From Actinomycetota bacterium (GTDB lineage: Bacteria > Actinomycetota > Thermoleophilia > RBG-16-64-13), in contig JAAYCW010000009.1 in assembly GCA_012729575.1 (NCBI GenBank), positions 1 through 61,000 of the forward strand: DNA of 61,000 bases, given 5' to 3'. The translations under genes and the position numbers were made by a program. A model generated the notes under the pieces. It was not told where the DNA came from, ran no database searches, and worked only from the letters and a program-made list of their open reading frames with translations. This document shows positions 33,421-50,617 of this stretch, piece by piece. Numbering within the stretch: position 1 is the first letter of the stretch; each line of letters begins with the position of its first letter.

Positions 33421-36000
33421 TTAAGAGCTACCCGGCCATTTCTCCACTTCGAGCAGGCACGAATTGGGGGCCTGCCCTGACGAGGTCGGAGTGATGAAAC
33501 GCTTGGGGGTCAGCATGTTTATGCACCCGGCCGTGTCTGCAGAATGGCCCGGCTCGCCCAGCGGTAGGTAGTCTCCGCAGGATTCCCAGGCGTGGACTAT
33601 GCCCGGAGGCAGTCTCTCCGTGACCTGGGCCGCTAGGATGACCTCTCCCCTATCGTTGAAGGCTCGGATGAGGTCGCCATCTTCGATACCCCTTGTCACG
33701 GCGTCCTTCTTATTCAGGCGCAAAATCCAGTAGTAATGCCCGTCCACCAGCATCCTGTGGTTCTTGATCTCGTTGCTCCAGCTCTCCTTGGCATCCCCAA
33801 CCGTGTGATAGCTGTAGCGAGGATGCGGGGAGACCATGGCGAGTGGGTACTTTTCGCAAAGTGCGGTGGTGTGATGCCCTTCCCAACTCTCCAGATACTG
33901 GGGTCCCATCACGGGCCGTTCGGGATCGACGCCATCGGTTTCGTAGAAGCGCTTGAGGCTGTTGGCGACGAACTCGATCTTGCCACTCTGGGTCTGAAGA
34001 CCCTTGCCTCCTATCTGGTCCCAGATCGGAGGGCCCCAGTCCGGGGTGTCCTTGACCCGCCCTTCTGCGAACCATCGCAGGGCGGGTGTGGGTTCTTGGT
34101 TCTCCGGGACGGGCACCATGTAGTAGCCCTTCTTCTCGAAGTCTTCCCAACTAATTCTGCTTGGCAGGTCACTCGCGTGGAACATGCGCTTCACCCAGTC
34201 GAGATCGCTGTGGCCTCCTTCGGTATACCGGTCTGCGAAGCCCAAACGGTCAGCGAGCAGGCTGAAGATCTCATAGTCCGACTTGGATTCTCCCAAGGGC
34301 TCGATGCACTTCTTCTCGAGAACGATGAGGCGGTGGTTGACCTGGTCGAACTTGTGCGTGCCATATCCGGATGGATGTGCCCAGTCGCCGATATCCCAAC
34401 GCTCGAAATTAGTGCACGCCGGTAGGATGATGTCGGCGAACTTGGCCTCCCCCTCGAACCAGATGGACTGGTTGACCACGAAAGGCACCTTTCCCTCCCG
34501 ATAGCCGCGAACAAAGCGGTTGGTCTCGGTCATGGTGCCGAAGAAGGAGCCACCGTAGCGGTAGTACATCTGCACGTGTGGATACCCGGAGGCGGGATAC
34601 TGATACTTCTTGAACTGCATCTCTATGGAACCGCCACAGAAGCCCTTGCCGCGCCACTCCAGCCGTTCATGATGCATCATCTCCGGGATCAGCAGCCGGT
34701 AACCGATCTGTCCCTCCGGTCCGTGCTGGGGATTCGAGATGGTGCCCCCGTTGGGCCACATGCGGAAGGAGAGACGGTAGCCTGAGGCTGTGCCGACCGT
34801 GTCGGCGGATATGCCGCCCTCCGCATAGCCGGGGAACCAGAAGTCTCGGTCGGCCGGGACGCCGCAGGTGGTCGAATAGATGTTACTGCCGGGCTTGCCC
34901 AGCCCCTGCATGGCTGCCAGCGCGATCATCATCCTCGCGTATTCGTTACCGTAGGAAGAACGGCAGGCGCCGCCCCACCCGCCCATGCCGCCGGCTGCCA
35001 GCATGGTCTTCTTGGAACCCCATTCGCGCGCCAGAGCCCGGATCTCCCGAGCGGGGACCAGGCTTTCGCCCTCAGCCCACTCCGGGGTCTTGGGGACGCC
35101 GTCGGTCTCGCCCAGAACGTAGCTCTTCCACTCATCGAAGCCCTGGGTGCGGGTCTCCACGTATTCCCTGTCGTACAGTCCCTCAGTTAACCATACGAAC
35201 GCTATACCCAGGCCCAAGGCTACATCGGTGCCCATGCGCGGCGCCATCCATTTGTCGGCGACCAGGCCCGCGGTATGGTTGAAGTGAGGGTCAATGAAGA
35301 CCATCTTAACGCCCAGTTCCTTGAGCCACTGCCGCCGGGAGAAGCTCTCGTGCGACCCGTACACGCCACAAGTGGTCTCAGGATCGGATGACCAGAACAC
35401 CATCATCTCGGCATTCTCGAGTGCATCCTGCAGGAGATCGTACTGCTCGGGCAGCCCCAGGCGACTGCTGAAGCCCCACATATGATCGCCGCCCCACTGC
35501 CAGCCTTCCCAGCTGTCCGGGTTGTGCTCGACGTAGGTCATCCCCCACAGGTTCATGAAGCGGTTGTAGGCGCTGAAACGGTAGCCGACGTTGCCCCACA
35601 TATGATGGGAGGAGGGAGTGGTCATCATGGCCGCGGGACCGTATTCCCGCTTCAGCCTGATCATCTCCTCGGCTATCGTGTCGAGGGCTTCGTCCCAGCT
35701 TATCGGCTCGTAGCCCGATTCGCCCCTCTTGGCGATGTTACGCCTTCCCTTGCGGTCGAAATCGACGCGCTTCAGGGGCGTCAGTATGCGCTTCGGTGAG
35801 TAAATGGTTGACTTGTGAGCAGCCGTCCAGTTGGTGATTGTGGTTCTTCTGGGCGGCGTGAATTCCCTACCCCGTGCCCTGATAGTCCAGGAGGGACCAT
35901 CGCTGTCGTCGAGCTGGAGAGGGATGATGCGGACGATCTTGCCCCCGTCCACGTCCACATGCACCGGACCTCCAGTGGTCAGGTTCGTCAGTCGCTGCAT
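33421..36000 (-). CDS. molybdopterin (bis-MGD) oxidoreductase, pyrogallol hydroxytransferase large-subunit (AthL)-like
   Basis: 859 aa from the ATG at 36000 (SD AAGGA 8 nt upstream). LTNLTTGGPVHVDVDGGKIVRI, TPSSHHMWGNVGYRF, NPDSWEGWQWGGDHMWGF, VFWSSDPETT, ILPACTNFERWDI and a C-terminal beta-barrel GDLIRAFNDRGEVILAAQVTE are near-collinear with my recollection of the Pelobacter transhydroxylase alpha subunit. No N-terminal Cys cluster and no RR signal. The ORF-track start at 36117 adds 39 unsupported codons. Confidence 0.8.
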   Translation of the reverse strand: MQRLTNLTTGGPVHVDVDGGKIVRIIPLQLDDSDGPSWTIRARGREFTPPRRTTITNWTAAHKSTIYSPKRILTPLKRVDFDRKGRRNIAKRGESGYEPISWDEALDTIAEEMIRLKREYGPAAMMTTPSSHHMWGNVGYRFSAYNRFMNLWGMTYVEHNPDSWEGWQWGGDHMWGFSSRLGLPEQYDLLQDALENAEMMVFWSSDPETTCGVYGSHESFSRRQWLKELGVKMVFIDPHFNHTAGLVADKWMAPRMGTDVALGLGIAFVWLTEGLYDREYVETRTQGFDEWKSYVLGETDGVPKTPEWAEGESLVPAREIRALAREWGSKKTMLAAGGMGGWGGACRSSYGNEYARMMIALAAMQGLGKPGSNIYSTTCGVPADRDFWFPGYAEGGISADTVGTASGYRLSFRMWPNGGTISNPQHGPEGQIGYRLLIPEMMHHERLEWRGKGFCGGSIEMQFKKYQYPASGYPHVQMYYRYGGSFFGTMTETNRFVRGYREGKVPFVVNQSIWFEGEAKFADIILPACTNFERWDIGDWAHPSGYGTHKFDQVNHRLIVLEKKCIEPLGESKSDYEIFSLLADRLGFADRYTEGGHSDLDWVKRMFHASDLPSRISWEDFEKKGYYMVPVPENQEPTPALRWFAEGRVKDTPDWGPPIWDQIGGKGLQTQSGKIEFVANSLKRFYETDGVDPERPVMGPQYLESWEGHHTTALCEKYPLAMVSPHPRYSYHTVGDAKESWSNEIKNHRMLVDGHYYWILRLNKKDAVTRGIEDGDLIRAFNDRGEVILAAQVTERLPPGIVHAWESCGDYLPLGEPGHSADTAGCINMLTPKRFITPTSSGQAPNSCLLEVEKWPGSS

Positions 36001-36141
36001 TTCTGCCGTCCTTGCGCTTGTTGCTTCGGTTGAGGGAAATGATATAGTACCGAGCGCCCGCATATCGTCTGCGGTGCGCTCAGTCCGAGCCCAGTCGGGG
36101 CGGAGCCGCTTGGCCAAGCCAAGAATCGCGGGTCTGTCGCC

Positions 36142-44302: not shown

Positions 44303-45394
44303 CTACTCGATCACTAGCCCCATTATCTGGCCGGCCCACTTCTTGCTGTCGCTGACCTGATCGGGTTCCTCGCTCACGAAAGCGACACGCAGGGCTCCCT
44401 CATCGGAGTAGAGGGGCAGGCCATTGCGGGAATACGTCAAGATCATCGTAACGCTTCCGGCGTAGTCTGCGATCTCCTCTCCACTCTCCGGATCGTACAC
44501 GGGAACCTTTCCGTTCACGTCATCAGCCGAGAACTTCGACTCATAACCATCGGCTGCGATGGCCTGAACGGCAGCCCCCTCTCCCACGAGCGCCATCAGA
44601 TCCTGGATGGCGACACCTTGGTAGAGATCCGGCCCTGAGATGTTGCCGAGCTTGTTTTTGTAGCCCCCATACCCCTCGGTGGCTTCCATGGCCTTGAGTT
44701 CGGCCATGGAGAGCTCCATGAGAGTGCCGTCCGCCGCTGTACCCAGCTTAAGGATCTTACCCACTCGGTAGTAGAGCTGGCAGAGTATCTCGGCTGCCTC
44801 GCCCCGCGTCGCGGGAGCGGTGACATCCCAGTCGGCCAGGTCGGGAATGCCCGCCAGCAGACCGTTGAACTCGGCTGTCTTGATATTGAGGCCGTGGTAC
44901 TGGTTGGAGTAGTCGAGTTCGCCCTGGTAATCGTCCGTTGCCGCCGCAAGTGCTTCGCCTCCGGCCCGCACCGCGATGCTGATCGCCTGTTGCCGGGTCA
45001 CGTTGTCATAGAAGCCGAAGAGACCGTTGGTGTAGCCCTGGATGATGCCCTCTGCGGTGGCAACAGCTACGTAACTGCCCGGATAGAGTGGGTTGTTCAC
45101 CGGATCGTAGGGAGCCGGCGTGTCCGGGAACTGTGATTGGTCTTCGGCCGTCACCTCGTAGTCCAGAGCAAGCACCGCCATCTTGGCGAATTGCTGACGC
45201 TGGAGGGGATTGTCAGGTCTGAACGTGTTGTCGTTGTACCCACCGACGATCGACCGAGCTGAGAGATGCACGATGCTCGCTTCGAAGTCGGTATCTTCGA
45301 TATCGGTGAACTCCACTGCGGATGCGGGTACCGCCACCGCGAGCACCAGGACTACCGCCAGCAGCAGCCCCATGGTCAATCGGACCTTCTTCAT
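44303..45394 (-). CDS. secreted SLH-domain cell-wall protein with a C-terminal SUOX-fold (molybdopterin-binding-like) domain
   Basis: Sec signal MKKVRLTMGLLLAVVLVLAVAVPASA. Three SLH-like repeats (FTDIEDTDFEASIVHLSARSIVGGYNDNTFRPDNPLQRQQFAKM; ...GIIQGYTNGLFGFYDNVTRQQAISI; ...TAPATRGEAAEILCQLY). The C-terminal ~140 aa are paralogous to 45452-46324 and 46423-47445. Confidence 0.8.
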   Translation of the reverse strand: MKKVRLTMGLLLAVVLVLAVAVPASAVEFTDIEDTDFEASIVHLSARSIVGGYNDNTFRPDNPLQRQQFAKMAVLALDYEVTAEDQSQFPDTPAPYDPVNNPLYPGSYVAVATAEGIIQGYTNGLFGFYDNVTRQQAISIAVRAGGEALAAATDDYQGELDYSNQYHGLNIKTAEFNGLLAGIPDLADWDVTAPATRGEAAEILCQLYYRVGKILKLGTAADGTLMELSMAELKAMEATEGYGGYKNKLGNISGPDLYQGVAIQDLMALVGEGAAVQAIAADGYESKFSADDVNGKVPVYDPESGEEIADYAGSVTMILTYSRNGLPLYSDEGALRVAFVSEEPDQVSDSKKWAGQIMGLVIE

Positions 45395-45451
45395 CCAGAC
45401 TCCTTCCTCACGCGTTTGTACATCCTTCTCTCCTAATGCACGTTTGGAGCA

Positions 45452-46324
45452 CTAGTTGACCCGTAGTTCGACCACCTTCTTGACCCACATGTCGCTGTCG
45501 GTGACCTGGTTGTTCTCAGAGGTGACGAAGGCAAGCCGGAGAGGTCCCTCGCCGGAACTCAGGGCGGCCCCTCCTTTCGCATACGCGATGATCACTTTAA
45601 CGGCCACTCCGCTCGTTGCCTGTCCGGTGGCCGCGTCGTAGGTGTTGACCGAACCACCGGCCTGGTCTGCCGACAACGTGGCACCGTAGCCGTCGGAGGC
45701 GACGACCGTGACTGAGCCGCTCCCGCCCACCAAATCCATCAGCGCACGCAGCGACACTCCCTTCCAAGGGGTGGGAGCAGTGATGTTCTCCAATTGGTTC
45801 TTCCATCCCCCATACCCCTCGGTGGCCGGCATGGCCTTGAGTTCGGCCATGGACAGCTCCCTGATCCCCGATGGACCCTGGATGATGAGTGCGGTCGGTC
45901 CCTTGGCCGTGGTCGTGGTTGGTGCCGCGGTGGTCGTCGGTCGTGCCGTGGTCGTTGGTGCCGCGGTGGTCGTCGGTCGTGCCGTGGTCGAGGTCGGGCC
46001 ACCCGTCGTGGTAATCGGTGGGACGGTGGTCGTCGCCTGAGGGGCATCGGTGATTACGGTGGTTGTCGAGGCTGGGCCCGGTGCCGCGGTGGTCGTCCTC
46101 ATGTTGGAGTCGCCGGTCTTGGTGGAGCGGGTGACAGACGGCAGGTCCGACGGGGCAGTTGAGAACTTGGGAGCGGTTGTCGTCGTGAGCATGATTCCGG
46201 TGGAATCGGTGCTGTCAGCCGTGGTCACACCATCGCCGCAGCCTCCTGTAGCGAGTGCGATCAGGAGAGCGAACGCGCTGCTCAGTCTGACCAACCGCGA
46301 GAATCCCTTTGCTCTGTCTTGCAT
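45452..46324 (-). CDS. probable lipoprotein: Thr/Pro-rich linker + SUOX-fold (molybdopterin-binding-like) domain
   Basis: ATG at 46324 preceded by AGGGGTGG. Signal MQDRAKGFSRLVRLSSAFALLIALATGGC. Linker TTTAPK...TTARPTTTAAPTTTARPTTTAAPTTTT. C-terminal domain ELSMAELKAMPATEGYGGWKN...GPLRLAF. Confidence 0.8.
   Translation of the reverse strand: MQDRAKGFSRLVRLSSAFALLIALATGGCGDGVTTADSTDSTGIMLTTTTAPKFSTAPSDLPSVTRSTKTGDSNMRTTTAAPGPASTTTVITDAPQATTTVPPITTTGGPTSTTARPTTTAAPTTTARPTTTAAPTTTTAKGPTALIIQGPSGIRELSMAELKAMPATEGYGGWKNQLENITAPTPWKGVSLRALMDLVGGSGSVTVVASDGYGATLSADQAGGSVNTYDAATGQATSGVAVKVIIAYAKGGAALSSGEGPLRLAFVTSENNQVTDSDMWVKKVVELRVN
45909..45990. repeat. tandem ~36-nt coding repeat (Thr/Pro/Ala linker)
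   Basis: GTGGTCGT(TG)GGTGCCGCGGTGGTCGTCGGTCGTGCC occurs twice in tandem, followed by a partial third copy. On the minus strand it encodes PTTTARPTTTAA units. Confidence 0.85.
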
Positions 46325-46422
46325 GCCACCCCTAGCGAGTAATGTGCCATGTGTGAATTGTTCCACTACATATGATATAAGAAACGGTCTCATAGGGTTA
46401 CAGATGCGTCAAGGAGCTTGGA

Positions 46423-47445
46423 ATGTTCATGAGCGTTAGGCGTCTACTCTCCCCGATTCTGTGCTTGTCGGCGGGGGTACTGTTGTTGGGAGGGCTCGGT
46501 CTTGCGACAGGTTGCAGCTCCGATGAAGGAGCGACCGGCGAGGGCGAGGGCGTGATCGAAGTGGTCGGTTCTGAGGGCTCGAAGACCTACACTCTGGATG
46601 AGATCAGGGACATGCCCGCCACCGAGGGCTACTGGGGCATGAAGAGCTCCACGGGGCGTATCACCCCGCCGGTGAAGACCAAGGGCGTCAATCTGGACGA
46701 TCTGTTTGAGGAAGTAGGCGGCCTCCCGGATGACCAGGCGGTGGGCATCGTTGCTAAAGACGGATATGAGATGACCGTCTCAGTGGCTCAGCTCAGAGAA
46801 GGCAAGTTCATCACTTACGACATGGTGACGGGTGACGAGAACGACGTCGACGGCCCCCTCACCGCCATAGTCGCTTACGAATGGGATGGGCAGCCTTTCG
46901 ATCCTCAGACCGATGGGCCTCTGCGCATGGCCATAGTCAGCCCCGCCCAGAACCAGGTGACTGATGGTCATTGGTCGGTCAAATGGGTGAGCAGAGTGCT
47001 GGTGAAAGCCATAGAGCAGGACTGGGTCCTCACGCTCACGGGCAAACTGACGGAAGAGATGGACCGGCCTACGTTCGAGACCGGAGCTGCTGAAGGGTGC
47101 CATGGCACCGATTGGACTGACGGTGAGGGCAACGTCTGGACAGGTATCCCTCTGTATCTGTTGGTTGGACGAGTGGATGACGACAACGTGCACGAGGGGC
47201 CGGCCTACAACCGGGATCTGGCCGAGGCAGGCTATCAGGTGCGGATCGCAGCCGCCGACGGGCAGAGCGCCGAGATCGCCAGTGACGCCATGTACTACAA
47301 CAAGGAGCTCATCGTGGCCTACAAGCTGAACGGCGAGGCCCTACCTGATGATTACTGGCCGCTGCGACTCGTGGGCAAGGACATGCAAGAGTCCGACATG
47401 CTCGGACAGATAACCCAGATCGAGGCCCTGGTGCCGGCGGAGTAG
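46423..47445 (+). CDS. probable lipoprotein with two tandem SUOX-fold (molybdopterin-binding-like) domains
   Basis: SD AAGGAG 6 nt upstream. Signal MFMSVRRLLSPILCLSAGVLLLGGLGLATGC. Domain 1 (TLDEIRDMPATEGYWGMKS...GPLRMAIV) is paralogous to the two minus-strand genes. Domain 2 (WVLTLTGKL...EGCHGTDW...WTGIPLYLLV...LIVAYKLNGEALPDDYWPLRLV) follows the classical YedY/sulfite-oxidase Moco-domain pattern. Confidence 0.8.
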   Translation: MFMSVRRLLSPILCLSAGVLLLGGLGLATGCSSDEGATGEGEGVIEVVGSEGSKTYTLDEIRDMPATEGYWGMKSSTGRITPPVKTKGVNLDDLFEEVGGLPDDQAVGIVAKDGYEMTVSVAQLREGKFITYDMVTGDENDVDGPLTAIVAYEWDGQPFDPQTDGPLRMAIVSPAQNQVTDGHWSVKWVSRVLVKAIEQDWVLTLTGKLTEEMDRPTFETGAAEGCHGTDWTDGEGNVWTGIPLYLLVGRVDDDNVHEGPAYNRDLAEAGYQVRIAAADGQSAEIASDAMYYNKELIVAYKLNGEALPDDYWPLRLVGKDMQESDMLGQITQIEALVPAE

Positions 47446-47449
47446 GTCG

Positions 47450-48553
47450 GTGATGCGGCGCCTCAACTGGATCTGTGCGCTCTTCTGGATCGTCATCCTG
47501 TTGTGCGCCGGTTGTTCTGACGGAGCGGACGGCGGGGCATCCGGCGGGAGCGCGGGAGACGAGGGGAGTCTCCGCGTGCTTTTCGCGGGCAGCCTGATCA
47601 TCCCCTTCGCGCAGCTGGAGGAGGAGTTCGAGGCGGTCCATCCCGACGTGGAGGTGAACATGGAGGGTCATGGTAGCATCCAGGCCATCCGCATCGTGGG
47701 CGATCTTCACGAGGAGGCGGACCTGGTGATCACCGCCGACCATCAGTTGATTCCGATGCTGCTCTACGGGACGAAAGACCCCGATTCCGGGCTGCCCTAC
47801 GCCGAGTGGAACGTCATCTTCGCCACCAATAGGATGGCTCTCGCATACTCTCCGGAGAGTGCCTACGCCGACGAGGTGAACGCTGATAACTGGATCGAGG
47901 TCATCAACCGCGAAGGGGTCAGGTTGGGTTGCTCCGATCCCCGGATCGACGCCAACGGATACCGCGTCCTGATGACCGTCAAGTTGGCCGAGTATTACTA
48001 CGACCGCCCCGGCCTGTTCTCAGAGATTTTCGGCGGGGTATTCAGGGTGCCTGTCAGGAGCGCGGAGACAGATACAGGCGCACTGATCACGGTGCCCGAG
48101 ATCCTTGAAACCAAGAGTGGTTCACATATCGTACTGCGCCCCTACAGCGTGAGTCTGCTCCCCCTGCTGAAATCGGGCGAAATAGACTATGCTTTCGAGT
48201 ATGAGAGCGTAGCCAAGCAGCACGGCCTCGAGTACATATCGCTGCCGCCGGAGATCGATCTCAGCGATCAAGCTTATGCCGACACATATGCTGCCGTCAC
48301 CGTCAAGCTCGACTTTCAACGCTACGCCAGCGTGAAGCCTGAGTTCAGGGGAGACCCGATCCGCTACGGCGCGACCATACCGAGCAACGCTCGGGACCCG
48401 GAAGCCTCTGAGCTGCTCCTAGCCTTCCTTCTGGGGCCGGAGGGGCAGCGAATCATGGCCGACAACTACCAGCCGATGATCATGCCGGCCCCCGCCGACA
48501 ACTTCAACGATCTGCCGGAATCGATCAAAGCCTTCTGCACCCCGGCCGACTGA
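47450..48553 (+). CDS. wtpA: tungstate/molybdate ABC transporter substrate-binding lipoprotein, WtpA-type
   Basis: Signal MMRRLNWICALFWIVILLCAGC. LRVLFAGSLIIPFAQLEEEFEAVHPDVEV, DPRIDANGYR and EIDYAFEYESVAKQHGLEYISLPPEIDL match my recollection of archaeal WtpA. Confidence 0.8.
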   Translation: MMRRLNWICALFWIVILLCAGCSDGADGGASGGSAGDEGSLRVLFAGSLIIPFAQLEEEFEAVHPDVEVNMEGHGSIQAIRIVGDLHEEADLVITADHQLIPMLLYGTKDPDSGLPYAEWNVIFATNRMALAYSPESAYADEVNADNWIEVINREGVRLGCSDPRIDANGYRVLMTVKLAEYYYDRPGLFSEIFGGVFRVPVRSAETDTGALITVPEILETKSGSHIVLRPYSVSLLPLLKSGEIDYAFEYESVAKQHGLEYISLPPEIDLSDQAYADTYAAVTVKLDFQRYASVKPEFRGDPIRYGATIPSNARDPEASELLLAFLLGPEGQRIMADNYQPMIMPAPADNFNDLPESIKAFCTPAD

Positions 48554-48560
48554 CGGGGGT

Positions 48561-49385
48561 ATGCCGATGAACCGTGGTCGCGTGCTCAGCCGGATGGACT
48601 GGGTCTTCTCGTTCGTGGGCCTGCTGCTGTTGCTCTTCATCCTCGTCCCTTTGGTGGCCACCCTGTTTGCGTCAAGCCCGGGGGAGTTCATCGAGGGGGT
48701 GGCCGACAAAGGGGTGCTTCAGTCCTTGTGGTTGACTTTTGCCGCAGCTTCTGTCGCCACATTGATCGCGCTGGTTCTTGGGATCCCTCTCGCCTACCTT
48801 CTGGCGCGAAGGGAGTTCTGGGGGAAGAGCCTCGTCCAGGGGATCATCGATCTGCCCATCATCATACCGCACACCGCTGCGGGAGTGGCGCTTCTGATGG
48901 TCTTCGGCCGGCGCGGGCTCTTGGGAGAGCCGCTTGCCTCGGTCGGTATGTACTTCACTGAGAACTTCGCGGGTATCGTGGTGGCCATGCTGTTCGTCAG
49001 CCTGCCGCTTCTGGTGGATACGGCCCGCGAGTCCTTCGCGGCGGTAGACCAGCGGCTGGAGGGTGTCGCCCGGACCCTGGGGGCGAGCCCTTGGTCGGCT
49101 TTCAGGCGGGTCACGCTCCCGTTGGCCTGGAGGGGGATAACCGCGGGCTCGGTGCTGATGTGGGCGAGGGGCATAAGTGAATTCGGCGCTGTGGTGATCT
49201 TGGCCTACAACCCCAAGACCATCTCGGTGCTGGTATACGAGAGGTTTGCTGGGTTCGGCCTGTCGTCGGCACTGCCGGTCACGGCTCTGCTGCTGATCTT
49301 GGCTTTGCTGATACTGGTGGTGGTACGAGCGGTGCTCATGCCCCGCCGGCGCAAGGAACGCCCCGGCCGCGGAGGAATGCGGTGA
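48561..49385 (+). CDS. wtpB: ABC transporter permease (WtpB/ModB-like)
   Basis: 274 aa, about 6 TM segments. EAA-loop region VARTLGASPWSAFRRVTLPLAWRG. Confidence 0.85.
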   Translation: MPMNRGRVLSRMDWVFSFVGLLLLLFILVPLVATLFASSPGEFIEGVADKGVLQSLWLTFAAASVATLIALVLGIPLAYLLARREFWGKSLVQGIIDLPIIIPHTAAGVALLMVFGRRGLLGEPLASVGMYFTENFAGIVVAMLFVSLPLLVDTARESFAAVDQRLEGVARTLGASPWSAFRRVTLPLAWRGITAGSVLMWARGISEFGAVVILAYNPKTISVLVYERFAGFGLSSALPVTALLLILALLILVVVRAVLMPRRRKERPGRGGMR

Positions 49386-50617
49386 TCCGACTGGAGGGCT
49401 TTCGGGTGCGCGCTGGCGATTTCTTGCTCAGCATAGATGAGTTATCCATCGAGCGTGGCGAGTACCTCGTGGTCTTAGGTCCTACAGGGTCAGGCAAGAC
49501 GGTCTTACTGGAGACGGTCGCGGGTCTGAGACGGCCTCACAGTGGGAGGATCTGGTTCGGAGAGAGGGATGTCTGGGGTGAGCCGCCCGAGAGGCGGAAA
49601 GTCGGGTTGGTGTATCAGGACTATGCACTCTTCCCACATCTGACGGTAGCGCAGAACATCGCCTTCGGTCTGCGAGCTACCCGGAGGTCTGAACGGGGGC
49701 GGGCCGGACCCGGAGTAAGCGGCAGCGGACTCAGAACAGGCGGCATCGGATCCGACGACTCGGAGGACGGCCCCGTTCGCCGGCTGGCCGGGCTGCTCGG
49801 CATAGACGGTTTGCTCCGCAGATACCCGGAGGGGCTTTCCGGAGGCGAGCGCCAGCGGGTCGCGCTCGCCCGCGCTCTAGCTATCGAGCCGGAGGTGCTG
49901 CTGCTGGACGAGCCGTTGTCGGCCTTGGACGGTCCGACCCGGGCTGAGCTGCAGGGTGAGCTGAAACGTGTGCAGCGCGGGCTGGGGGCCACCGTTTTAC
50001 ACGTGACTCACGATTTGGACGAAGCCCTACTTCTGGGTGACAGACTGGCGGTACTTGCAGGCGGTACGCTGCGCCAGGTGGGAGCGCCGCAGCATGTGAC
50101 CAGTCATCCCGTGGACACAGAGGTGGCCCGGCTGGCCGGGCTCACCAATGTGTTTCCCGCATCGGAGGTTGAGAGCGAATCCACCGGCGCGGGAGCACAG
50201 GGGACGCGTGTCGTCTTGGAGAGCGGACACGTGATTTTCGCCGAGGCGGCTGCGACGGCTCCTGCCCGCATTGGTCTCTCGGCTGTGATCCGAGCTGAAG
50301 AGATTGAGATTCGGCAGATATCGCCGGCCGGGGAAAGAGCAAGCCTCGGTAGTCACGGTAGGGATGATGCAGAGGAGCCGGCCGAGCGCGCCAACGTGTT
50401 TGAAGGTATCATCGGAGAAGTACGGCTCCAGAGTGTTCATGCTTCCATCCAGGTGGAGATACCACCGGTCCAGGCCGGGAGGGCTGCATGGCAGGTGACG
50501 GTCCACGTTCTCCGCTCTCAGGTGGACAGATTCGGCTTGCAGACGGGCCTGTCGGTGCATCTGCGGATCCCCGTTTCGGCGGTCCACATCTGCCTCGATC
50601 AGGGCCGTACGGTTTAG
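49382..50617 (+). CDS. wtpC: ABC transporter ATP-binding protein (WtpC/ModC-like) with a C-terminal regulatory-type domain
   Basis: Walker A GPTGSGKT, signature LSGGERQRVALARA, Walker B LLLDEPLSALD. A ~30-aa low-complexity insert (RSERGRAGPGVSGSGLRTGGIGSDDSEDG) precedes the signature. About 170 extra C-terminal residues. 4-nt overlap with wtpB. Confidence 0.85.
   Translation: MIRLEGFRVRAGDFLLSIDELSIERGEYLVVLGPTGSGKTVLLETVAGLRRPHSGRIWFGERDVWGEPPERRKVGLVYQDYALFPHLTVAQNIAFGLRATRRSERGRAGPGVSGSGLRTGGIGSDDSEDGPVRRLAGLLGIDGLLRRYPEGLSGGERQRVALARALAIEPEVLLLDEPLSALDGPTRAELQGELKRVQRGLGATVLHVTHDLDEALLLGDRLAVLAGGTLRQVGAPQHVTSHPVDTEVARLAGLTNVFPASEVESESTGAGAQGTRVVLESGHVIFAEAAATAPARIGLSAVIRAEEIEIRQISPAGERASLGSHGRDDAEEPAERANVFEGIIGEVRLQSVHASIQVEIPPVQAGRAAWQVTVHVLRSQVDRFGLQTGLSVHLRIPVSAVHICLDQGRTV

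Follow-up and report, generated by a model that had tools for sequence, protein, structure and literature searches.

The stretch of DNA analyzed in this study (61,000 nt; hereafter, the window) is from contig JAAYCW010000009.1 (assembly GCA_012729575.1) of an Actinomycetota bacterium (Thermoleophilia, RBG-16-64-13). It carries a six-gene locus in which three exported proteins with domains of the sulfite oxidase (SUOX) fold are encoded beside a WtpABC-type tungstate/molybdate importer. The minus strand encodes an S-layer homology (SLH)-anchored protein (44303–45394; 363 aa) and a stalk lipoprotein (45452–46324; the open reading frame [ORF] is open to 46393, and 46324 was chosen as the start). 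A divergent control region of 98 bp (46325–46422) is followed on the plus strand by the ORFs of a two-domain lipoprotein (46423–47445; 340 aa), wtpA (47450–48553), wtpB (48561–49385), and wtpC (49382–50617). The stop of the two-domain gene is separated from wtpA by 4 nt and wtpA from wtpB by 7 nt, and wtpB and wtpC overlap by 4 nt. The tight plus-strand spacing claimed in an earlier note on this DNA, which was made from the letters alone, was thus measured directly, and the ORFs and hidden Markov model (HMM) matches placed the six genes, three anchor types, four domains of ~140 aa, and wtpABC where that note had put them.

The two-domain lipoprotein (lipobox LATG-C31) consists of an N-terminal domain (aa 42–198; 46546–47016, plus strand) containing Y70 (46630–46632) and D113-G-Y115, and a C-terminal domain (aa 199–340; 47017–47442, plus strand) containing C226-H227 (47098–47103). 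The motifs TEGYGGY, TEGYGGW, TEGYWGM, and EGCHGTDW were all present in the four domains of the locus, and the Tyr of the first three was aligned with the Cys of the last by MAFFT. We therefore call these domains Y-type and C-type, and the two-domain lipoprotein the Y-C protein. The three Y-type domains contain no cysteine and the C-type domain contains one; these counts and the alignment agree with the claim that the Y-type copies are Cys-less with Tyr at the Cys position and that the C-type copy has a single Cys. The SLH protein has a Sec signal (MKKVRL...PASA/VEF), SLH repeats (Pfam SLH, E = 2.8e-14, two stretches), and a C-terminal Y-type minimal SUOX-fold domain (aa 223–363; 44306–44728, minus strand), which shares 46% identity with the domain of the stalk protein (E = 3e-42) and 37% with the N-terminal domain of the Y-C protein. 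In the stalk lipoprotein (lipobox LATGG-C29), the start at 46324 yields a proper signal peptide (MQDRAKGF...LATGG-C), which precedes a stalk of ~115 residues (35% Thr; 67% Thr, Pro, Ala, and Ser) and a C-terminal Y-type domain (about 45455–45895, minus strand). The three anchors, that is, SLH repeats, a Thr/Pro stalk on a lipoprotein, and a short-tether lipoprotein, are thus distinct as had been described. Public gene calls for orthologues of the stalk lipoprotein (P0121, P0124–P0131) are often 132 aa long and begin at an internal Met. With the lipoprotein signal and the stalk missing from such a call, the stalk protein appears cytoplasmic in annotations.

The fold assignment was examined with profiles and structural models. 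The Y-C protein matched PF00174 above the cut-off (E = 7.7e-12), the match of the stalk protein was below it (E = 2.8e-4), and the SLH protein gave no PF00174 match. The profile check proposed in the earlier note was therefore positive for the Y-C protein and the SLH repeats, sub-threshold for the stalk protein, and negative for the domain of the SLH protein. The AlphaFold2 model of the Y-C protein (77 homologues) had a mean predicted local distance difference test (pLDDT) score of 89 and two beta-rich domains of 142–157 aa. A Foldseek search of the Protein Data Bank (PDB) with this model gave 45 matches at E ≤ 1e-3, all of the SUOX family. The top match was the "putative pterin binding protein" PruR (7kom; E = 1.3e-6, TMt 0.74; also 7kos, 7rkb, and 7kp2), and SoxC, SorA, chicken and plant sulfite oxidase, nitrate reductase, and YedY came next. 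Modelled on its own, the C-type domain (pLDDT 92.4; predicted TM score 0.88) matched SUOX molybdenum cofactor (Moco) domains with TMq 0.63–0.72 and PruR with TMq 0.65–0.67 and TMt 0.62–0.70, with one unrelated exception; E values to SorA, sulfite oxidase, nitrate reductase, and YedY were 7e-6 to 1e-4, and the PruR matches spanned TMt 0.62–0.74 over both models. A comparison with hhalign shows that the Y-type and C-type domains share ancestry (96%, E = 1e-9). A sequence search of the PDB with the whole Y-C protein returned nothing, and the domain profiles gave marginal matches only. The SUOX fold claimed for the domains is thus backed by the PF00174 match, the models, and Foldseek, and each domain is predicted from the models to be a minimal SUOX fold of the PruR size class (~140 aa), about half the size of the enzymes. 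All three exported proteins (44303–47445) also weakly match NCBIfam NF041762 "GEGP motif-containing diheme protein" at profile positions ~128–230. The GEGP motif appears to be the G-x-G-P-L-R motif of the domain, which implies that some relatives carry c-type cytochrome fusions.

In Proteobacteria, PruR is secreted into the periplasm by the Sec route and comprises little more than a truncated SUOX fold, in which the Mo-ligating Cys is absent, Pro-Trp is in its place, and the cleft is too short for Moco (PMC11194511, PMC13259868). It holds tetrahydromonapterin-type pterins between Y104 and W160 with hydrogen bonds from N102, and then binds the periplasmic domain of the cyclic di-GMP enzyme DcpA, which is encoded just downstream (PMC11194511, PMC13259868). 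The earlier statement that no function had been described for Cys-less exported SUOX-fold domains is therefore outdated, because PruR is such a protein and is the top structural match (PMC11194511).

WtpA, a lipoprotein, passes TIGR03730 (296 bits; cut-off 242.75) and matches the solved homologues MA_0280 (3k6u, 1e-72), AF_0094 (2onk, 2e-61), and PF0080 (3cg1, 2e-50). By sequence, it is a bona fide homologue of tungstate/molybdate oxyanion binders. The best NCBIfam matches of WtpB (NF040839, 7e-88, 294 bits; Pfam BPD_transp_1) and WtpC (NF040840, 8e-80, 269 bits; Pfam ABC_tran, 2e-29, and a C-terminal TOBE-like region, TOBE 0.007) are under the equivalog cut-offs of 340 and 440, respectively; the operon order A-B-C and its overlaps fit WtpABC. 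Compared with the solved WtpA/ModA of Methanosarcina acetivorans, WtpA of the window has insertions, GTKDPDSG (~106–113) and a segment within FQRYASVKPEF (~287–292), which could be lineage-specific surface features, e.g., a docking site.

To survey the neighborhoods, one genome per species was used (251 relatives), and the best-matching 80 loci were analyzed; 76 of them were informative, with at least 900 bp of downstream sequence. The taxa comprised Gaiellales/Thermoleophilia and other Actinomycetota, many Anaerolineae and other Chloroflexota, and one Atribacteria metagenome-assembled genome (MAG). Of the 76 informative loci, 75 encode a WtpA homologue downstream of the Y-C gene and in its orientation, within ~600 bp in 71, typically with E = 1e-100 to 1e-185 to WtpA of the window, and WtpB came next in 71 loci. 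L050 was the sole informative locus without a downstream wtpA. Two Bathyarchaeota homologues (34–36% identity) were followed by SBP_bac_11 and BPD_transp_1 genes, and in one of them (L082) also by ABC_tran. Gene order is thus kept across Actinomycetota, Chloroflexota, Atribacteria, and Bathyarchaeota at 34–77% protein identity, with overlapping or few-nt junctions. The linkage of Y-C to wtpA is near-obligate and among the tightest syntenies one can find, and the proposed coupling to wtpABC was borne out by this survey, archaea included.

The single-Y paralogues follow the same pattern. Of 17 informative Actinomycetota loci, 15 have both beside Y-C; the paralogues are either oriented divergently, which is the arrangement of the window, or part of one co-directional operon of the order stalk-Y, SLH-Y, Y-C, wtpABC (L011, L014, and L034). 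Chloroflexota lack separate paralogues, and there one or two shorter "T-type" domains (EHPKKG...DGY...CxDC...WVKDV) are appended to Y-C; hhalign identifies them as homologues of the Y-type (97.8%, E = 1e-12). Such fission and fusion of paralogues speaks for joint action of all the domains. The T-type domains lie at the C-terminus of Chloroflexota proteins of ~500–650 aa (L020:10886–11302, L046, L050, L057, and L068) and have two conserved cysteines, both absent from the Y-type. Three Chloroflexota loci (L051:2882–4291, L073:8448–9938, and L080:968–2368) have a second, longer WtpA-like ORF of ~470–500 aa, with two or three matched stretches, directly upstream of Y-C. A candidate Y-C::WtpA fusion (L071:9935–12154; 740 aa, no stop between the parts) was rejected: its WtpA part keeps its own signal and lipobox, the locus is from a long-read MAG assembly with other frameshifted genes, and the fusion is probably an assembly error.

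The control region shared by the divergent genes has a GC content of 45.9% against ~61% for the window, and its size and AT-richness were correctly given before. Two conserved non-coding blocks were found in it, ACATATGATATAAGAAACGGTCTCATA (46368–46394) and GCGTCAAGGAG (46406–46416). Near-identical blocks ACATATGGTATAAGAAAC(C/G)GTCTCAC and GCGTCAAGGAG, with 15–20 variable nt between them, lie just upstream of the Y-C start in eight orthologous loci (L002, L003, L006, L007, L009, L010, L012, and L015), the proteins of which are only 60–77% identical. They are absent where the Y-C gene is internal to an operon (L011 and L014). Judged from their letters, the blocks look like an extended -10 promoter with a conserved short leader/operator and a Shine-Dalgarno sequence, and the ATATGGTATAAGAAACNGTCTCAC block is a candidate regulator-binding site. 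A riboswitch or other RNA structure in the leader was rejected, since no Rfam family was matched and RNAalifold gave 0 pairs. No second copy of the leader motif was found elsewhere in the window.

Candidate ligand residues of the domains are sharply conserved. C226 and H227 were invariant in 83 of 83 full-length homologues and in 40 of 40 locus translations, and Y70 was conserved as Tyr in 95% of homologues. Because of this conservation, and because the gene order recurs across phyla, the sequences indicate that the domains are under strong purifying selection and are not a chance resemblance. When the C-type profile was aligned with E. coli MsrP using hhalign, C226 fell on C146 with a weak score (E = 0.053). 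The aligned segments pair eWtLxLxG with PWTLKISG and C-H-G..W..(gq).W.G-iPL with C146-VEAWSMVVPW-IGFPL, and the shared motif C..W..W.G.PL is clear and in agreement with the structural match. The Cys of the C-type domain had been claimed to occupy the Mo-ligand position, and this weakly scored but motif-consistent alignment places it there. With a trimmed Y-type profile that included the SLH and stalk copies, PruR of Agrobacterium tumefaciens was the best PDB match (E = 0.017): "vakDGYemt" was aligned to "VALNDYVST", so that D113-G-Y115 corresponds to N102-D-Y104 of PruR. No Y-type copy departs from D-G-Y, those of the SLH and stalk proteins included, and the nearly invariant H-W..K-W near the C-terminus of the Y-type may be the counterpart of W160. 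The C-type domain of the window has D-G-Q instead of D-G-Y and no C-terminal Trp.

Because the Y-type keeps D-G-Y and a Tyr at the former Cys position, and the C-type keeps Cys-His without the stacking Tyr, the ancestral Moco site looks divided, with its pterin half (D/N-x-Y) in the Y-type and its metal-ligand half (Cys and the invariant His) in the C-type. The option that the Cys-less copies are decoy or scaffold paralogues is unlikely, since they keep the invariant D-G-Y pocket motif. We also considered a heme c site (A-x-x-C-H; GAAEGCH, and C-x4-CH in some homologues) and set it aside, because most homologues lack the first Cys and a SUOX fold is not that of a cytochrome.

The position of C226 and the superposition of the C-type domain on the Moco domains of SorA, sulfite oxidase, and YedY (TMq 0.63–0.72) raise the alternative of an extracytoplasmic Mo/W-pterin oxidoreductase, with the C-type domain as a small-scale YedY/MsrP-like enzyme and the Y-type domains as non-catalytic partners. 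The shared C..W..W.G.PL motif, the RRxF-like n-regions of some homologues, and the weak GEGP diheme-family matches, which point to cytochrome-fused relatives, are also in its favor. The export signals argue otherwise. A lipobox lies in the N-terminal 60 residues of 92 of the 120 listed homologues, and an RR pair in the n-region of only 23 of these 92. Many n-regions begin with MKK... or MKH..., or carry KR or a single Arg, and archaeal members have an N-terminal transmembrane anchor. The family as a whole therefore does not conserve twin-arginine translocation (Tat) with cytoplasmic Moco loading. RR also occurs in WtpA of the window, which needs no cofactor, as would be anticipated for an Arg-rich proteome of high GC content. 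The earlier caveat that the RR pairs of the Y-C protein and WtpA might signal Tat export is thus disfavored; to judge from the signal sequences, export probably occurs via lipoprotein/Sec signals and is unlikely to take place with Moco already bound. Furthermore, at ~140 aa the domain matches PruR in length, and the PruR cleft is not long enough for Moco (PMC11194511), the C-type domain of the window lacks the pterin-stacking Tyr (DGQ) and the C-terminal Trp, the operon contains no redox partner, and no heme or MsrQ-like gene was found at the locus. We consider such an enzyme very unlikely.

The family extends well beyond the surveyed loci. A HMMER search with the full-length profile gave 1,818 clusters at 50% identity, 986 of them at E ≤ 1e-10 and 452 at E ≤ 1e-30; a homology search with the Y-type single-domain proteins reached close orthologues only. 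Source annotations read "molybdopterin-dependent oxidoreductase", "YedYZ catalytic subunit", or "hypothetical". Metagenome loci related to the tandem arrays described next include divergent CYC+Y+Y gene sets directly before WtpA (L092, L096, L097, L100, L101, L103, L107, and L109). Giant surface proteins of 1,000–3,139 aa (P0151, P0152, P0163, P0221, and others; L084–L089) contain 4–10 tandem copies of the domain; some add PKD, CBM96, Ig-like, and NosD/beta-helix modules, and anchors at the N-terminus are frequent. The array loci came from a metagenome scan with an alignment query, and the single-sequence query P0152 matched nothing. Cys-His is absent in 216 of 317 copies of the tandem-array proteins, and the invariant GCHG..W therefore marks the Wtp-linked subfamily, in which alone W3, R17, C28, H29, W33, D35, W41, D54, H59, and Y73 (domain numbering) are invariant. 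The fold thus acts as a binding module of broad use outside the cell, with one branch devoted to Wtp. In full-text literature searches, no paper linking the SUOX-fold family to WtpA or tungstate import was found, no accessory extracytoplasmic protein turned up for the Wtp, Mod, and Tup systems, and the PruR papers (PMC11194511, PMC13259868) made no mention of a transporter link.

The exported proteins are very probably functional partners of WtpABC in tungsten/molybdenum (W/Mo) acquisition. As to how they act, it is quite possible, and we propose tentatively, that cofactor-free PruR-like modules capture W/Mo species in the envelope and hand them to WtpA. The exported proteins would leave the cell as apo-domains, and the domains would bind W/Mo species, be it the oxyanion, a thio-form, or the metal on a pterin-like or other organic ligand. 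Wall-tethered domains would concentrate or process these species, and the membrane-proximal Y-C lipoprotein would pass tungstate/molybdate to the lipoprotein WtpA for import. In the monoderm envelope the anchors hold the domains at three levels, on the wall by SLH, out from the membrane on the ~115-aa stalk, and close to it on the short-tether lipoprotein, and such graded tethers would suggest, by analogy, a relay like the iron-regulated surface determinant (Isd) heme system, here for W/Mo.

Several points weigh against the capture and hand-off proposal and the link to WtpABC. Archaeal WtpA binds tungstate very tightly unaided. A small oxyanion diffuses freely through peptidoglycan, so there is no obvious need for a relay of the bare oxyanion, and conservation of the D-G-Y pocket speaks for a pterin-like organic ligand instead. 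The sequence alignments with MsrP and PruR are statistically marginal (E = 0.017–0.05), and relatives remoter than the 80 best-matching loci may differ. In addition, no wtpA was found near the largest arrays L085, L086, L088, and L089 (3.7–10 kb flank), and the fold is therefore not dedicated to Wtp. The giant arrays with PKD, CBM96, and beta-helix modules would suit proteins without any role in metal uptake, e.g., generic wall or adhesion modules, with the wtpABC adjacency as an inherited order. The order is, however, kept from Actinomycetota to Bathyarchaeota at 34–77% identity, and synteny that deep is not kept without selection; we regard this explanation as extremely improbable.

Since a bare oxyanion needs no relay, WtpA already binds tightly, and the pocket is of the pterin type, other roles beside WtpABC were weighed; the capture and hand-off, pterin or metal sensing, and redox enzyme options of the earlier note remain the right shortlist. 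First, the proteins might be a PruR-like sensor, in which the Y-type domains bind an extracellular pterin as a redox report and the Y-C protein docks on WtpA/WtpB and gates uptake. PruR is the closest solved structure, the pterin-contact motif D/N-x-Y is invariant in the Y-type, and PruR is likewise Sec-exported and the first gene of a two-gene operon with its partner (PMC11194511). On the other hand, a sensor leaves unexplained the three paralogues at different wall depths and the arrays or fusions of up to 10 copies. The PW motif of PruR is absent from the family, the partner is a classical ABC importer with no DcpA/DTB-type WX7E domain, and PruR has no counterpart of the C-type domain with its invariant Cys-His. 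A sensor role is thus unlikely.

Second, the Cys-His of the C-type domain might act as a cofactor-independent enzyme that frees the oxyanion from a thiometalate, a metallophore, or an organic complex, with the Y-type binding the substrate. W/Mo are thiolated or complexed in sulfidic anoxic habitats, and anaerobic bioreactors and other anoxic sites are the origin of many source MAGs. Only within the Wtp-linked subfamily are Cys-His and a number of acidic and aromatic residues kept without variation. But such chemistry has no precedent on the SUOX fold, no catalytic motif was recognized by any profile library searched, and a lone extracytoplasmic Cys could equally be a metal ligand, so that we think this enzyme quite unlikely. 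A third role would combine the two halves of the divided site in a metal-pterin scavenging relay for released Mo/W cofactor, its breakdown products, or an excreted pterin/dithiolene "tungstophore". The Y-type domains at three wall depths would hold the pterin moiety in the D-G-Y pocket, and Cys-His of the C-type at the ancestral Mo-ligand site would strip the metal, the freed oxyanion going to WtpA. We give this relay a decidedly low probability; if true, W/Mo would have a counterpart of the Isd system, and the Moco fold would for the first time be seen to serve cofactor or metal salvage outside the cell.

As for the host, the window encodes an 898-aa molybdenum/tungsten-bis(pyranopterin guanosine dinucleotide) (Mo/W-bisPGD) enzyme of the dimethyl sulfoxide reductase family (33421–36117, minus strand), which shows that the host uses Mo/W-pterin cofactors. 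This enzyme, called "AthL-like" in the earlier note, is bisC/TorA-like but under every equivalog cut-off, and is a likely user of the imported metal. It has no signal peptide and is therefore cytoplasmic and uninformative as an internal Tat control. The rest of the window is housekeeping, with a tRNA cluster (four genes at 87–682), SecY, RpoA, TruA, GlmS, CCA-adding enzyme, release factor RF1, PrmC, and serine hydroxymethyltransferase. The nearest named relatives are Thermoleophilia/Gaiellales MAGs.

In the usual view, three components suffice for W/Mo uptake: a binding protein, a permease, and an ATPase. At these loci, a conserved fourth component is encoded before wtpA in many uncultured Actinomycetota and Chloroflexota and on Bathyarchaeota contigs, and this pairing points to an undescribed accessory step in W/Mo acquisition. 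Such lineages are frequent inhabitants of anoxic sediments and digesters, habitats in which the speciation of W/Mo restricts how much is available. The best explanation of what is new at the locus is that PruR-like cofactor-free SUOX-fold domains were recruited as accessory parts of a known ABC importer. If capture or processing of W/Mo by these domains is true, models of trace-metal acquisition change, and the newly recognized PruR class of cofactor-free SUOX-fold binding proteins gains a second biological role. The present mis-annotation also inflates molybdoenzyme counts in metagenomic surveys. The domains are small and fold well, and their candidate ligand residues are sharply defined (Y70, D113-G-Y115, and C226-H227).

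Among known systems, PruR (A. tumefaciens Atu3496 and homologues; 7kos, 7kom, 7kp2, and 7rkb) shares with the present proteins the ~140-aa fold, Sec export, and a first place in an operon with a partner, and the absence of Moco in PruR probably extends to them; the Y-type copies also lack the Mo-ligating Cys and keep the pterin-contact N/D-x-Y. In contrast, the present family occurs in Actinomycetota, Chloroflexota, and archaea rather than Proteobacteria, has Tyr or Cys-His at the former Cys position, where the Pro-Trp motif of PruR was not found, and forms larger two-domain, multi-paralogue, or tandem proteins with SLH, stalk, or lipid anchors. Its partner is WtpABC, without a DcpA/DTB-type WX7E domain, and not a cyclic di-GMP enzyme or sensor kinase; sequence similarity of PruR to the Y-type is marginal (E about 0.02). 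The SUOX molybdoenzymes (YedY/MsrP, SorA/SorT, sulfite oxidase, and plant nitrate reductase; PF00174) share the fold core, the motifs DGY, AY..NG.PL, and G.PLR, and the C-type Cys at the Mo-ligand position. The present domains differ from them in their half size, in the absence of a conserved Tat signal, a dimerization or heme domain, and an MsrQ-like partner, and in having the Mo-position Cys in one of four copies; they are probably without a Mo/W cofactor.

The importer itself corresponds to WtpABC and archaeal ModA-WtpA (Pyrococcus furiosus PF0080, Archaeoglobus fulgidus AF_0094, and M. acetivorans MA_0280) in its WtpA match and A-B-C order, and differs from the described systems in the SUOX-fold gene before wtpA, which is found almost without exception. 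In the Isd system of Staphylococcus aureus, NEAT-domain heme binders at graded wall depths feed the lipoprotein IsdE and the permease IsdF. The fold there is unrelated, anchoring is by sortase rather than by SLH, stalk, or lipid, and the design of WtpA suits an oxyanion instead of a metal-organic cofactor. The likeness is a functional analogy: in both, paralogous binding domains stand at differing depths of a monoderm envelope beside an ABC importer with a lipoprotein solute-binding protein.

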